The position numbers and the translations under genes are program-made. Under the pieces are notes generated by a model. That model was given only the letters and a program-made list of their open reading frames with translations, made no database searches and was not told the DNA's origin. Below are positions 14,189-18,696 of a stretch of DNA of 20,343 bases, in pieces. The DNA is taken from positions 1-20,343 of the forward strand of contig PFAI01000003.1 of assembly GCA_002763225.1 (NCBI GenBank), in the 5' to 3' direction. This stretch comes from Candidatus Diapherotrites archaeon CG10_big_fil_rev_8_21_14_0_10_31_34 (lineage in GTDB: Archaea > Iainarchaeota > Iainarchaeia > Iainarchaeales > 1-14-0-10-31-34). How positions within the stretch are numbered: position 1 is the first letter of the stretch; each line of letters opens with the position of its first letter.

Positions 14189-14204
14189 TTTTTCTCTTTT
14201 TTTT
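14189..14204 (+). terminator. Oligo-T archaeal-type terminator candidate
   Basis: TTTTTCTCTTTTTTTT directly after the stop at 14184, between convergent genes. Confidence 0.45.
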
Positions 14205-15840
14205 ATATTTCTATTTCAATCACTGAAACATTTGTCTCTAATCCAAACTCTTGCATAACTTTTTGATTTATTTCCCCTACAAAACCTTTTTTTCCGTCAG
14301 AGAATTCAATTAAAGCGCTTTTTCCTTCAGCTAAAAAACTTGTTTTTGCTTCTTTTAACTTAACTTTCATTTTTAATTCTCTTGCTATTGCTTCTAAAAT
14401 TGATTTTACTTCATTAAAGTTTGTTTTTGAATGAGTAATTGAAACGCATAATTTCCATTTTTCTTCTACTCCTGTTTCTTTTTCTGAATTTAATTCAATT
14501 GTTCTTCCTACTTCAAAAATTTTTTGAGGATAACTTTTATTCTTGTTTTTGCTTAAAAAATCAAGTGACTCAGGCAGCAATTTTTTCCTGAATATTTCCC
14601 AGTTAGATGAAACAGGATTAGCTATTTCAACAAATTCTTCTTTTAAATTCATTTTCTTCATTTGAGTTTCTTTTGAAGTCAAATGATTTGAAGCAATTTC
14701 CTGCAAGCCAAATCCAATACATAATTCTCTTACTTCTTTTAATTGAGTTGATTTTTCTTCAACACTTCCTAAAGTAAAAACATCAAGTTTTTCCGGTTCA
14801 AACTTGTTGTAATCAAATGCAATAGCAATATCTTCTATTACATCCCATGGATGAATTATGTCTTTTCTGTAATTCCCAAATTCAACAGTTATTTTTTTTC
14901 CTTTGATTTTTCCTTTTAATCTCTTTTTTTCCAGCAGTTTTAATATTTCTTTTCCTGAAAAGTTTGTTCCAAGCAGTTCATTTACTTCGCTTAAATTAAA
15001 AACAATTTTTTCTTTTTTAAATTCAGGGGAAATTAATTTCTTTTTTTCATAATCTAATTCAACTGAATAAATTTTTCCTTTTCTGTCAGCTAAAGCCATG
15101 CACATAATCTTTAACGCAGTGTCAACTAATTTTTGATTAAATCCTGTTACATCAACAAACAAGTTTTTTGTTTGTTCTGTTACTTTTCCTGATGTATCTG
15201 AATTAATTATCGGAGGCATTGATAAAACTTCGTTGTTTTCATCAGCCAATAAAGGAAATTTTTCAAACCCTTCTATGAGCTTTCCGTATTCTTTTCCTTT
15301 TGGATGCTTTATTAAAATTTCTCTTAAGCTCATACTCTCAGAAAAACCTAATGGAATAAATTCCATTGAAGGCTCTGCAGCAAAATACTTTACATTTCCT
15401 TTAACTTTATCCAAATCAAATACTCCTATTGCAACCTGTTCTCTTTTTTTTCCAAAGCTCTGGCAGATTTTTTCCTGCAATTGAATTATCTGTAATAAAA
15501 TTTCTTCAGTTATTTCAATTCCTCTAATTTCTGCATAAGCTGCTTTTGGTCTTATGTCTTTTAAATTTGAATCAATTTTTGCTTTTCTTTTTCCTTTCAA
15601 AACTTTGTATTCTGGAATCCCTTTTTCTTTTCCAATAAAAGCTTTTATTTCTCTGGCAATTCCTTCAACTGACCATAAATCCGGTCTGTTAGTTTCTTTT
15701 ATGTCAATCTTTAATTCATCTTCGTTTATTCCATCTAATTCTCCTTTGACTCCTAACAATACGTCTTCTAATTCTTCTTTTGAAAACTTTTTTCCAACCA
15801 GTAATTCAAAATCTTTTTTTGAGCATTCAATTGTAGGCAT
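14203..15840 (-). CDS. pheT: Phenylalanine--tRNA ligase beta subunit (archaeal type)
   Basis: MPTI start, TNRPDLWSVEGIAR, QLQEKI...GKKR...AIGVFD, VLSMPPIINS, YRKDIIHPWDVIEDIAIA. Confidence 0.97.
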   Translation of the reverse strand: MPTIECSKKDFELLVGKKFSKEELEDVLLGVKGELDGINEDELKIDIKETNRPDLWSVEGIAREIKAFIGKEKGIPEYKVLKGKRKAKIDSNLKDIRPKAAYAEIRGIEITEEILLQIIQLQEKICQSFGKKREQVAIGVFDLDKVKGNVKYFAAEPSMEFIPLGFSESMSLREILIKHPKGKEYGKLIEGFEKFPLLADENNEVLSMPPIINSDTSGKVTEQTKNLFVDVTGFNQKLVDTALKIMCMALADRKGKIYSVELDYEKKKLISPEFKKEKIVFNLSEVNELLGTNFSGKEILKLLEKKRLKGKIKGKKITVEFGNYRKDIIHPWDVIEDIAIAFDYNKFEPEKLDVFTLGSVEEKSTQLKEVRELCIGFGLQEIASNHLTSKETQMKKMNLKEEFVEIANPVSSNWEIFRKKLLPESLDFLSKNKNKSYPQKIFEVGRTIELNSEKETGVEEKWKLCVSITHSKTNFNEVKSILEAIARELKMKVKLKEAKTSFLAEGKSALIEFSDGKKGFVGEINQKVMQEFGLETNVSVIEIEI

Positions 15841-15881: not shown

Positions 15882-15928
15882 TAAATCCTTTCCTCAAAAA
15901 TTTCTCCAATTAAATTCTTTTTTTTCAT
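15881..15928 (-). CDS. Putative micro-ORF 1 (15 aa, MKKKNLIGEIFEERI)
   Basis: Its ATG overlaps the pheS TAA (TAATG) and its TAA overlaps the next ATG. Translation is not demonstrated. Confidence 0.45.
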   Translation of the reverse strand: MKKKNLIGEIFEERI

Positions 15929-17766
15929 TAAATTCCCTTCCTTAACCAATCCAGATTCTGTGAAAACAATTCTCTTATATCATTTAGTTTAAGCTTGAAC
16001 ATTGCTAATCTGTCCATTCCTAAACCCCAAGCCAAACACTTTTCTTTTATTCCAAGGTTTTCAGTTATTTCTGCCCTGAAAATTCCTGCACCACCGAATT
16101 CAACCCAGCCTAATTCAGGGTGTAATGCATTTAACTGAACTGATGGTTCGGTAAAAGGATAATAGTCAGGCAAAAACTTTACTTTTTCGGCTCCGGCAAT
16201 TTCTACTGCAAATTCTTTTAGCAATCCAAGCAATTTTCTTAAAGTAAAATCTTTTCCAACAACAAATCCTTCCATTTGATTGAATTCAATTAAATGAGTT
16301 GCATCAACTACATCAGGCCTAAAACAACGGGCTAAAGTAAAATATTTTCCAGGAACTTCAATTCCTTTAACCAACTGTCTTGCAGAATGAGCTGTTCCAT
16401 GAGCTGAAGGCATTAACTGTTCAGCAATTTTTTCACTCCACTCATAATTCCAGCCCATGCTTTCAGCTTTTCCCCCGTTTTCATGGGCATTTTTTATTGT
16501 TTCAACAATTTTTTTTTCAGGAAGTTTTCCATGAGTAGGCTTCTTTAATTTGTATGTGTCAGTCCAGGTTCTTGCAGGATGATTTTGTGGCTGAAACAAT
16601 ACATCAAAATTATAGAATTCCTGTACAATCAAAGGGTTTTCCATTTCTTTAAACCCTAATGAAACCAGTTTTTGTTTTATTTCATCAACAAATTTATAGT
16701 AAGGCTGTTTTTTTCCTGGATAAACTTCTTCAACCGGGTCCTGAATATTATAATTTCTTATTATTTTTGCATTCAATAAATTTTCTGAACTTCTTGTTTC
16801 TTTTATTGATTCATTTGCACTAAAACCTTTTTCTGTAATTGAAATAAATTCATTTCCTTTTTCTTTGTGTTTTAAAAATCCTTTTCTAAAACCTAAAAAC
16901 TTCAAAACTTGTTTTTCTTTTTCATTTAAGTTTTTTTCTTCTAATTCTTTTTCCCCTATTTTTTCCAGTATTAATTCTTCTTCAGTTTTTTTCTCTAAAA
17001 ACTCTTTTCCTTTTTCTGTGATTTTAACAGTTAATTCTTTTTCTTTTTTTAATTCAATTAAATCCTTTTTTTTTGCGTTTCCTAAAGCAATATTTATTTC
17101 CTGTTTTGAAATGCTTTTAATTTCTGATAAACTTTTCCAGTTTTCGTTTAACTCTTTTAAAAAGTTTTTTTCCGGCAAACCGTCTTTTACTGCTTTTAAT
17201 CCTTCAATTCCAAGTGAAACAAAAACCTGTTTTTCAATTCTTGCTTTTCCTAATTCTTTTTCATTCAGCCATTGAATTGCTCTTCTGGCTGAATCTAATT
17301 CAATTCCTGTTTTTTCGCTTAATTCCTGAACGCTTAATTCTTTTTTTTCTTCAGCTAAAACCTTTAATGTTTTTCTTTCAATTTCACTTAACTCTGAAAC
17401 AATTTTTTTTGCAGAATCATCCAAGCCAACTGCATTAATTTTCATTTCTTTTTTTCCTTCTTTAATTTCATTTTTTTTAATTTCAATTTTACTTTTTTTT
17501 TCTTGAATTCCTTCTTGAGTTTCTTTTTCCCAAACTTTTGCTTTTCCTTTTTCTAAAATCAATTCAATTTTTCCTTCTGCAGTTAATCTTATTTTCTTTA
17601 ATTCCACTAAATAATCTATTGCAGTGGAAAAAGTCTGGTACATCATTTGTTTTGGAAGCTTTTTCCATAACTCTGTTTTGCTTAATTTTTCTTTTGATTT
17701 CTTAATAGTATTTTCAACCATTGCAATAGTATCTAATCTGGGAGAATGAATGTGTTTTTTATCCAT
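15928..17766 (-). CDS. pheS: Phenylalanine--tRNA ligase alpha subunit with an extra ~107-aa N-terminal extension (wHTH-like domain plus linker)
   Basis: NFDVLFQPQNHPAR, RCFRPDVVDATHLIEFNQMEG, YYPFTEPS, WGLGMDRLAM. First ATG at 17766. An internal ATG at 17445 would give a conventional-length 505-aa protein. Confidence 0.96.
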   Translation of the reverse strand: MDKKHIHSPRLDTIAMVENTIKKSKEKLSKTELWKKLPKQMMYQTFSTAIDYLVELKKIRLTAEGKIELILEKGKAKVWEKETQEGIQEKKSKIEIKKNEIKEGKKEMKINAVGLDDSAKKIVSELSEIERKTLKVLAEEKKELSVQELSEKTGIELDSARRAIQWLNEKELGKARIEKQVFVSLGIEGLKAVKDGLPEKNFLKELNENWKSLSEIKSISKQEINIALGNAKKKDLIELKKEKELTVKITEKGKEFLEKKTEEELILEKIGEKELEEKNLNEKEKQVLKFLGFRKGFLKHKEKGNEFISITEKGFSANESIKETRSSENLLNAKIIRNYNIQDPVEEVYPGKKQPYYKFVDEIKQKLVSLGFKEMENPLIVQEFYNFDVLFQPQNHPARTWTDTYKLKKPTHGKLPEKKIVETIKNAHENGGKAESMGWNYEWSEKIAEQLMPSAHGTAHSARQLVKGIEVPGKYFTLARCFRPDVVDATHLIEFNQMEGFVVGKDFTLRKLLGLLKEFAVEIAGAEKVKFLPDYYPFTEPSVQLNALHPELGWVEFGGAGIFRAEITENLGIKEKCLAWGLGMDRLAMFKLKLNDIRELFSQNLDWLRKGI

Positions 17767-17775
17767 AAAAATCAA

Positions 17776-17813
17776 TTATATAAGTTTATATAATAAGGTT
17801 TATATAACTTTTC
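17776..17813. promoter_or_regulatory. Divergent pheS/nob1 promoter with three TTATATAA palindromes
   Basis: TTATATAA at 17776-17783, 17786-17793 and 17800-17807. The third copy is -29..-22 from the nob1 ATG and is preceded on the - strand by BRE-like GGAAAAG. Confidence 0.65.
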
Positions 17814-17828
17814 CTTCCCTTTCTTTTT

Positions 17829-18203
17829 ATGTCAAATTATGTAATGGATTCAGCTGTAATTTTAAACAACTTTAATTTTTCTTTTGGAGAAGATGTTTAT
17901 TTTACTTCAAACGAAATTTTGGATGAAATAATTGATTTTCGGTCAAAACATTTAGTTGAAATAGGATTAAAGCAAGGCAAAATCAAGGTAAGAGAACCAA
18001 AAAAAGATTCAATTAATTTAATTAAAAAAGCTGCAAATGAATTAAATATCCCTCATAAGCTTTCTTTAGCAGATATTTCTGTTTTAGCTCTTGCATTTGA
18101 ATTAAAGTTTCCTTTGCTCACAGACGACTATCATATCCATAAAGTCTGCTTAAAATTAGATTTAGAATTTGATTCAGTTTTTCGGGAAAAAATTGAAAAA
18201 TAA
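17829..18203 (+). CDS. nob1: Nob1-like PIN-domain ribonuclease lacking the C-terminal zinc ribbon
   Basis: YVMDS, 'TSNEILDEI', LSLADISVLALAFEL and LLTDDY are PIN/Nob1 acidic motifs. The ORF stops at ...REKIEK. Confidence 0.8.
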   Translation: MSNYVMDSAVILNNFNFSFGEDVYFTSNEILDEIIDFRSKHLVEIGLKQGKIKVREPKKDSINLIKKAANELNIPHKLSLADISVLALAFELKFPLLTDDYHIHKVCLKLDLEFDSVFREKIEK

Positions 18204-18207
18204 GTTA

Positions 18208-18696
18208 TTAAATAATTCTTCTTTTTGTTATAGTTTTTTTTGCAGAATTCCTTATGTTTTTTAATACAGGACCATATTTTGTTTTAGGTCTTAATTTAAT
18301 TTTGCTGGATTGCCCGTTTCTTATAGTTACTGTTTTTGCCTGTCTAATTATTTTTATTGCCTGGTTTTTATCGATTTTTCCTAATTGCATTAATTCTTTA
18401 ATTATTTTTTCATCAGTTATCCCTTTTTTTGGATCTCTTGCTTCCACTAATCTTAAAACAGCGGTTTCTCTGGTTTTCCAGTAATCAGTTATTCCTTTTT
18501 TATAAGCTTCTTGTGCTCCTAGATTTTTATAGGCTGCTATTGAACTTAGACTTTTTGCATGCCAATTTTCCATAAAATTTGTTATTGTTAATTTAGCGTT
18601 TTTTCCTTTTTCTTCATTAAATGTTTGAATAAAATCTAACCAGTAAGCGGTTTCAGTGCTCCATTTTTTCCCTGCTCCCTCATATAATTCAAACAT
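18208..18696 (-). CDS. Hypothetical protein (162 aa, very basic C-terminus)
   Basis: ATG-started ORF filling the gap, with its own BRE/TATA upstream. No motif recognised. Confidence 0.7.
   Translation of the reverse strand: MFELYEGAGKKWSTETAYWLDFIQTFNEEKGKNAKLTITNFMENWHAKSLSSIAAYKNLGAQEAYKKGITDYWKTRETAVLRLVEARDPKKGITDEKIIKELMQLGKIDKNQAIKIIRQAKTVTIRNGQSSKIKLRPKTKYGPVLKNIRNSAKKTITKRRII

Follow-up and report, generated by a model that had tools for sequence, protein, structure and literature searches.

The analysed stretch of DNA, hereafter the window, comprises 20,343 nucleotides (nt) of contig PFAI01000003.1 (positions 1 to 20,343, forward strand) in assembly GCA_002763225.1 of Candidatus Diapherotrites archaeon CG10_big_fil_rev_8_21_14_0_10_31_34, and carries on its minus strand pheS, the gene for the alpha subunit of phenylalanyl-tRNA synthetase (PheRS). 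In front of a complete synthetase subunit, this PheS bears a winged helix-turn-helix (wHTH) domain, which had been noticed in a first-pass annotation made by a model from the sequence letters. The domain is related to stand-alone archaeal proteins whose genes take the place of the antitoxin in gene pairs of the RelE/ParE type, and a palindrome of the type found at the promoters of those pairs lies at the pheS promoter. The gene and its promoter are laid out as follows:

15928..17766, minus strand: pheS, PheRS alpha subunit with the N-terminal extension; 612 amino acids (aa) plus stop, ATG start, from translation of the open reading frame (ORF)
17557..17748, minus strand: added winged-helix domain, aa 7-70 (HSPRLDT...GKIELI), 64 residues, from the AlphaFold2 model, Foldseek and homology
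17401..17556, minus strand: linker rich in lysine and glutamate (K/E-rich), aa 71-122, variable in length and sequence, from the alignment and the ratio of nonsynonymous to synonymous substitution rates (dN/dS)
17443..17445, minus strand: Met108, the internal ATG of the first-pass annotation, from translation
15928..17400, minus strand: canonical archaeal PheRS-alpha, with the usual N-terminal DNA-binding-fold region (aa 123-335) and the class II catalytic core (aa 336-612), from PRK04172
17775..17794: 20-bp palindrome ATTATATAAACTTATATAAT (minus strand), candidate operator, 9 nt upstream of the pheS ATG
17799..17807, minus strand: TATA-like element TTATATAAA, directly upstream of the palindrome, read from the sequence and the alignment

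The gene product is an archaeal PheRS-alpha by full-length matches above curated cut-offs. Positions 3-490 of the NCBIfam archaeal PheS model PRK04172 (496 positions) align to residues 125-610 (505.5 bits; cut-off, 350), and PF01409 (tRNA-synt_2d) covers aa 339-610 (E value of 8.5e-77, 258.4 bits against a cut-off of 19.8); weak Pfam matches to HTH_24, TrmB and HTH_11 fall at aa 125-178. Because PRK04172 aligns nearly whole to residues 125-610, about 122 residues are extra and the usual N-terminal region is complete. Translation placed codons 1-107 at 17766-17446, confirming the 107 in-frame codons counted in the first-pass annotation ahead of a Met at 17445. Its description of these codons as a wHTH-like domain additional to the usual N-terminal ones, followed by a K/E-rich linker, was likewise borne out by the PRK04172 alignment and the AlphaFold2 model. 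The N-terminus of archaeal and eukaryotic PheRS-alpha usually consists of three DNA-binding-fold domains (DBD-1, DBD-2 and DBD-3), two of them winged helices, which are described as serving the enzyme and the tRNA, not DNA (PMC3275996). The added domain resembles these in having a winged-helix-type fold at the N-terminus of the same subunit, but it comes as a fourth such domain, attached ahead of them by a variable tether in one genus only, and is akin instead to the stand-alone antitoxin-position proteins.

Conservation of the extension was followed through the six genomes of the genus (g1, genomes G000-G005, with G000 being the genome of the window; 1.04 Mb, 81% complete, 30.8% GC) and four comparison genomes (G006-G009), which represent three further genera of its family and another genus of its order. 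Every one of the six g1 genomes has the domain as part of an open frame of 587-615 aa, and a word-indexed search with residues 1-107 recovered 11 other fused protein clusters (573-607 aa), all of them PheS; in the three genomes of sister genera that were searched, no fusion was found. Residues 7-66 are near-invariant in the alignment of the 12 fused proteins; their linkers vary both in sequence (mean pairwise identity, 0.19) and in length, yet are in frame in every one of them. An extension of this kind could in principle arise through an assembly error or a frameshift joining a small upstream gene to pheS, and the long A-runs at 17446-17560 are the sort of sequence where this might happen. 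However, contigs from runs X1, X2 and X3, among which may be the run that the window came from, cover all of 17300-17900 and differ from it by 1-3 substitutions and 0 gaps, revealing no frameshift across the poly-A/T runs. Together with the open frame shared by the six genomes and the 12 clusters that stay in frame despite their different linkers, this makes the probability of an artefact virtually negligible, as far as contigs can tell. The fusion of the wHTH domain to PheS is real and in frame.

Several small differences accompany this comparison. Position 17772, between the palindrome and the ATG, reads C instead of T in contigs of runs X2-X4, and the bases at 17550 (T>C) and 17412 (C>T) also differ; all of this is strain-level variation without indels. 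Pieces of 18-23 nt and one apparent joint in the run contigs were disregarded as other contigs matching low-complexity A-rich stretches.

In pairwise comparison of the six genomes, dN/dS was lowest in the catalytic core (0.09), followed by the added domain (0.13) and the usual N-terminal region (0.20), and highest in the linker (0.82); judging from these ratios, the domain is under purifying selection. In G006-G009, PheS starts at residues corresponding to 106-122 of the query and is hence unfused, as exemplified by the 503-aa protein of G006 with the N-terminus MTLEKVLSELSEIE. The first-pass annotation had also considered that two isoforms are made, a long one from 17766 and a normal-length one from 17445, the short form being the working synthetase. 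Although an in-frame ATG is indeed present at 17445, the other 11 fused proteins do not conserve Met108, and the 16 residues ahead of ELSEIE, the stretch in which unfused orthologues begin, lack a Met in all 12. Moreover, the conserved TATA-like element and the palindrome precede the start at 17766, and the domain is under strong purifying selection. We thus consider the two-isoform scheme very improbable. The fused domains form one clade (support 100/99) inside the family, which is consistent with a single origin, with the deeper branching of the tree poorly supported. The fused genomes are close kin, their proteins being 76-81% identical to that of the window.

Two neighbouring genes help to place the event:

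14203..15840, minus strand: pheT, putative PheRS beta subunit, 545 aa, 87 nt downstream of pheS, from translated-ORF similarity and position
17829..18203, plus strand: divergent PIN-domain gene, 124 aa (PF17146 PIN_6, E value of 3.5e-14)

The order of pheT and pheS is the same in G006, and the two genes likely form one operon. The PIN_6 gene and pheS share a 62-bp intergenic region, and since G006 has the same divergent neighbour, the wHTH module was inserted between the PIN gene and the old start of pheS. The two genes must have a very compact bidirectional promoter region in common. Simple read-through into pheS from the gene next to it was considered as a source of the extension and rejected: the family genes of the sister genera lie elsewhere, and pheS has this same PIN gene beside it there.

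An AlphaFold2 model of aa 1-75, built from an alignment of 9 family members, has a mean predicted local distance difference test (pLDDT) score of 79.6 and the order H1-strand-H2-H3-beta-hairpin (helices at 11-23, 30-36 and 43-55, strands at 59-61 and 66-69). In Foldseek comparisons against the PDB, the listed matches are nearly all winged-helix proteins (Rpa2 WH, MarR, Fur/Zur, IclR and F-93), with template modelling (TM) scores of 0.6-0.7. The modelled topology of aa 7-70 is thus that of a winged-helix fold, and the domain carries a net charge of about +6, as counted from the translation. Curated collections hold little that resembles it: for the domain and its stand-alone relatives, searches returned nothing above cut-off in Pfam and NCBIfam and nothing in PADLOC, only matches with E values of 0.014 or higher in PHROGs, a chance match in the PDB sequence profile search (E value of 0.69) and unnamed archaeal clusters in the Atlas. 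The sole curated families with any signal are MC6, MC7 and MC8 of Pfam, which belong to ABC-three-component systems. MC6 (PF20293) matches the domain with an E value of 2.9e-4 and 21.2 bits, below its gathering cut-off of 27.2, so the domain is not counted as a member; MC7 matches one paralogue with an E value of 0.098, and the nearest named Atlas clusters, of the MC type, lie at 0.86-0.87. These families differ from the domain not only in scores below cut-off, but also in the mostly bacterial make-up of their clusters and in another gene context.

The first-pass annotation had linked the PRLDT motif to small stand-alone proteins of DPANN archaea, and such proteins do exist in large numbers. 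The window genome encodes three stand-alone paralogues of 90-100 aa, which are 45-51% identical to the fused domain and each of which overlaps a downstream gene (112-117 aa) by 4 nt. Members of the stand-alone family are archaeal proteins of 85-100 aa; a profile search found family matches at 82 places in 32 of 41 related genomes, and a profile of the downstream gene gave 77 places in 30 of the 41. Exhaustive HMMER searching of 1.84 billion representatives yielded 825 clusters at an E value of at most 1e-3 and 479 at an E value of at most 1e-10, the best 150 matches all being 70-210 aa long, with relatives assigned to Woesearchaeota, Pacearchaeota, Nanoarchaeota, Aenigmatarchaeota and Micrarchaeota. 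The fused domain is, by sequence similarity, a member of this unannotated archaeal family.

The downstream partner falls just below the Pfam cut-offs of YoeB_toxin (E value of 1.2e-5, 25.6 against 27) and ParE_toxin (E value of 1.5e-4, 22.7 against 23) and matches YoeB chains among the PDB sequences (E value of 1.6e-3). Its structural model (pLDDT 85.6) has a RelE-type fold, all listed Foldseek matches in the PDB being RelE/ParE/YoeB/HigB-type toxins or toxin-antitoxin entries (best E value of 2.3e-4). Within the 41 genomes, a RelE/ParE-like gene lies on the same strand no more than 400 bp downstream of 66 of the 76 stand-alone copies and of none of the 6 fused copies. Since such a toxin gene is found directly downstream in most cases, the stand-alone family occupies the antitoxin position of RelE/ParE-type pairs. 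At their C-terminus, its members have a conserved tail (W-I-x-N-P-x-L-L...), likely the toxin-neutralising part; each of the 12 fused proteins has the variable linker in its place.

Type II antitoxins autoregulate through a DNA-binding domain (PMC8630535, PMC2812701), and the DNA-binding fold of RelB is described as ribbon-helix-helix (PMC2812701). The present family resembles autoregulating antitoxins such as RelB and YefM in that its members lie upstream of genes for RelE/ParE-fold proteins, overlap them by 4 nt and have palindromes at their promoters. It differs from RelB in the winged-helix nature of its predicted DNA-binding fold, which no curated family covers, and the copy fused to PheS further departs from RelB- and YefM-type antitoxins in having neither a toxin gene nor the C-terminal tail. 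Of the features expected of a type II antitoxin, the fused domain therefore lacks the adjacent toxin gene and the toxin-neutralising region, and retains a predicted DNA-binding domain with a palindrome at its own promoter. A search of the linker with the toxin profile, in three frames and six genomes, found no convincing trace of a toxin-gene relic (best score, 6.7 bits).

Alternatively, the domain could still act as part of an antitoxin, binding RelE/ParE-like toxins as a decoy, sink or sensor and thereby tying a toxin to PheRS or to pheS transcription. Its homology to antitoxin-position proteins and the three toxin genes of this type in the window genome speak for such a role. Yet the likely toxin-binding tail is gone from all 12 fused proteins, none of the six fused genes is followed by a toxin gene, and G002, which is 94% complete, keeps the fusion although no toxin of the family was found in it at an E value of at most 1. 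The predicted complex of PheS aa 1-107 with the toxin-like protein of locus L002 scored 0.00 (mark, 0.32), which speaks neither for nor against binding. Overall, a toxin-binding function appears quite improbable.

The family shows further variety. Beside one stand-alone cassette, two small genes at L002:1955-2493 (plus strand), one of 89 aa and one of 87 aa whose product ends in ...YRILYMVFEEKQEVRFFFVGNHKQYEKWF, look by eye like another RelE/ParE-type pair; toxin-antitoxin pairs therefore cluster there. In three proteins of 159-210 aa (P0020, P0021 and P0023) the family profile matches twice, that is, they are tandem double winged helices. A divergent subfamily (L004:1474-1755, plus strand, and a minus-strand copy at L029) reads HSPTLNT... 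with QVNHNT in the recognition helix and forms its own clade (100/100). Its members have other inverted repeats upstream in place of the common palindrome, and their DNA specificity is probably different.

At the stand-alone genes, a 20-bp palindrome of the form GTTATATAAGTTTATACAAC directly adjoins a TATA box TTTAAATA and precedes the start codon. The same order of elements is found at pheS. In all six genomes of the genus, ATTATATAA-NN-TTATATAAT follows a TATA-like element rich in A/T and ends 9-18 nt short of the ATG; outside these elements the intergenic region varies across the genus, and both symmetric halves of the palindrome are kept. The TATA-like element, TTATATAAA in the window and AAATAAAAA elsewhere in the genus, presumably acts as the pheS TATA box. 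We trained a symmetric matrix on 35 stand-alone upstream regions from other genomes, with this genus, including the window genome, excluded; in 30 of these 35 regions, a count made on the training set itself, a palindrome of at least 15 bits lies between TTTAAATA and the start codon. When the 1.04-Mb genome was scanned with this matrix, the site upstream of pheS (C34:17775) ranked first with 21.9 bits, followed by a site at C55:4514 (21.1 bits) and by the cassette of one stand-alone paralogue (C45:19968, 19.4 bits), the next best site scoring 13.1 bits. The exact core TTATATAANNTTATATAA occurs at only two sites in the genome, of which the pheS site is one. This palindrome is missing upstream of pheS in the unfused genomes G006 and G008, and no site of this pattern was found anywhere in either genome. 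The presence of the family palindrome at the pheS promoter, only in the genus that has the fusion, is indirect but specific support for a PheRS that may bind DNA.

The second-ranking site, a perfect palindrome TTATATAAATTTATATAA at C55:4514-4533, lies outside the window. A pattern search allowing at most one mismatch detected two sites each in G001, G002, G003 and G005 and four in G004, one of which is always upstream of pheS. The remaining sites align to the C55 locus (orthologous sites in L050, L051, L052, L054 and L056). None of the six genomes differs from the others in the 18-bp core, whereas the left flank is partly conserved and the right flank unrelated. The palindrome is located upstream of a gene for a coiled-coil plus winged-helix protein of 155-157 aa, in some genomes with an inserted VapBC-like pair in between. 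At the orthologous loci of G006 and G008 no site was found, the top matrix scores being 4.0 and 1.6, and those pattern matches in G007 and G009 that were checked lie directly upstream of stand-alone cassettes. G002 has both palindromes, yet profile searches of this genome at an E value of at most 1 recovered no family member besides PheS, and no toxin. The PheRS head may have this second palindrome as an additional target; alternatively, the C55 site may be a hot spot for the insertion of toxin-antitoxin pairs.

The 157-aa gene at this locus (C55:3975-4448, minus strand; MNNHD...) has a different palindrome of its own, ATCATGATA-C-TATCATGAT, which lies downstream of a TTTTAAATAT box and ahead of the ATG. 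Its product gives weak Pfam winged-helix matches (Penicillinase_R, E value of 2.6e-4, under the cut-off), and both G006 and G008 have an orthologue; the gene seems to encode another regulator, distinct from the PheRS head, that controls itself.

Finally, we compared the residue preceding the [YSF]P-R-L-D-T motif with the base at the variable position of the half-site in 38 non-redundant protein-site pairs:

His with TATATAA (A-type) half-sites: 30 pairs
Arg with at least one TATATCA (C-type) half-site: 7 pairs
His with one C-type half-site: 1 pair

PheS combines His with an A-type site, and one pair of near-identical proteins differs in exactly this manner. We regard a recognition rule linking His or Arg to A or C as a lead only.

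Taken together, these patterns favour, with a probability of roughly 0.55, a scenario in which the DNA-binding module of an antitoxin was captured together with its operator, turning PheRS into a self-regulating DNA-binding protein. In the ancestor of the genus, the promoter, the palindromic operator and the DNA-binding part of the antitoxin would have been placed before pheS and joined to it in frame through a floppy K/E-rich tether of about 50 residues, with loss of the toxin gene and of the C-terminal tail of the antitoxin. The archaeal enzyme is an (alpha-beta)2 tetramer (PMC3275996), and PheRS therefore has a pair of heads. Most likely, one half-site of the 20-bp palindrome that separates the TATA-like element from the start codon would be bound by each head. 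Binding across the region of transcription start would repress pheS, and probably pheT, providing negative feedback on the level of PheRS. The proposal of a bifunctional, DNA-binding PheRS in the first-pass annotation stands in part: its structural premise, the fusion, holds, and binding is suggested by the family palindrome at pheS. A broader version, in which PheRS doubles as a synthetase and a transcription factor with sequence specificity, with a regulon made up of its own operon and the second palindrome beside the winged-helix regulator, and in which module and operator were captured in one step, is possible but in our view rather doubtful.

In the main rival reading, the added winged helix would have a use unrelated to DNA, such as an extra contact with tRNA or other RNA or the docking of a protein, with the palindrome being an inherited promoter of the cassette. 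PheRS-alpha already has three DNA-binding-fold domains in a tRNA-binding architecture (PMC3275996); a net charge of about +6 suits RNA as well, purifying selection fits any function, and the halves of the palindrome resemble TATA boxes. However, such a use would leave unexplained why the symmetric halves are kept at pheS, why a His-type head is matched by an A-type site and why the second palindrome is unchanged at 18 of 18 positions in six of six genomes amid diverged flanks, with no site found at the orthologous locus in the sister genera. In addition, a near-neutral tether of about 50 residues (dN/dS of 0.82) would be unusual for a precise contact with tRNA. On these grounds, we regard a non-DNA function as rather unlikely.

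Several points weigh against the capture of a self-regulating module. Sequence patterns are the sole basis for the proposed binding, from which repression and dimeric engagement are likewise inferred. A non-DNA role would not be odd, because the usual winged helices of PheRS-alpha serve the enzyme and the tRNA (PMC3275996). In Foldseek against the PDB, the domain has no match at an E value of at most 1e-3, the best being 9.6e-3. The fusion amounts to one evolutionary event, because all fused genomes are close kin. The cassettes of the other two paralogues of the window genome are outside the top 25 matrix matches, with best upstream windows of 7.4 (L003) and -8.9 (L004), and because of these low scores the matrix must be taken to miss some operators of the family. 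In a genome of 30.8% GC, the palindrome halves are TATA-like and the left half could itself be a TATA box, so that part of the conservation may be promoter conservation. Lastly, the residue-base co-variation corresponds to about three independent changes on the tree, too few for an independent-pairs test to reach significance (1 pair on starred branches, p = 1).

The proposed logic has precedents. In E. coli, AlaRS binds to a palindrome where transcription of its own gene begins and thereby represses that gene (PMC10485164). The likeness to PheRS lies in the proposed logic and in the geometry of the site, a palindrome at the enzyme's own gene. In contrast to AlaRS, for which binding was measured, PheRS appears to have acquired a discrete domain recently and together with the operator, and its binding is predicted. 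To our knowledge, no AlaRS has an appended winged helix derived from a mobile gene pair. BirA, the biotin protein ligase and bio repressor, consists of an N-terminal winged helix and a class II synthetase-like catalytic domain and sits as a dimer on a palindromic operator, its DNA binding being switched on by the intermediate of its own reaction. The order of domains is the same as in the PheS fusion, and the likeness is one of domain order; BirA is a different enzyme, and the switch by a reaction intermediate is a feature of BirA. By analogy, DNA binding by PheRS may respond to the state of the enzyme, that is, to its load of tRNA-Phe or phenylalanine. If so, translation capacity would be coupled to transcription in a very small genome.

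Literature listings and abstracts yielded no PheRS or other synthetase fused to an antitoxin-type domain and nothing on this archaeal family. Self-regulating synthetases and enzyme-repressors are already known, and by comparison with them the origin of the function would be unusually legible here. Moonlighting synthetases are familiar, but the way in which such functions originate can seldom be observed. In this genus and its relatives, genomes show the toxin-antitoxin pair as the source, what was captured from it (promoter, operator and DNA-binding domain), what was discarded (toxin and tail) and the unfused sister state. The locus would thus be a clear case of a module from a selfish element domesticated by an essential housekeeping gene. 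The analysis also defines a large, unannotated family of antitoxin-position winged helices in DPANN archaea, together with a candidate operator consensus. The putative rule of one residue and one base lends itself to testing, and the central claim could be tested with a 75-residue peptide and a 20-bp duplex.

Two minor observations concern the window and the family at large. A lysine-rich ORF of 162 aa at 18208-18696 of the window (minus strand) has no family match above cut-off. A search for longer proteins that might reveal other fusion partners of the domain gave only PheS, namely 12 proteins of 573-612 aa and one 320-aa piece. In genome G032, a family match (C3:311996-312181, plus strand) lies inside an open frame of 415 aa, with a toxin-like match just downstream on the opposite strand (C3:312264-312545, minus strand), which may represent either a different fusion or a read-through artefact.

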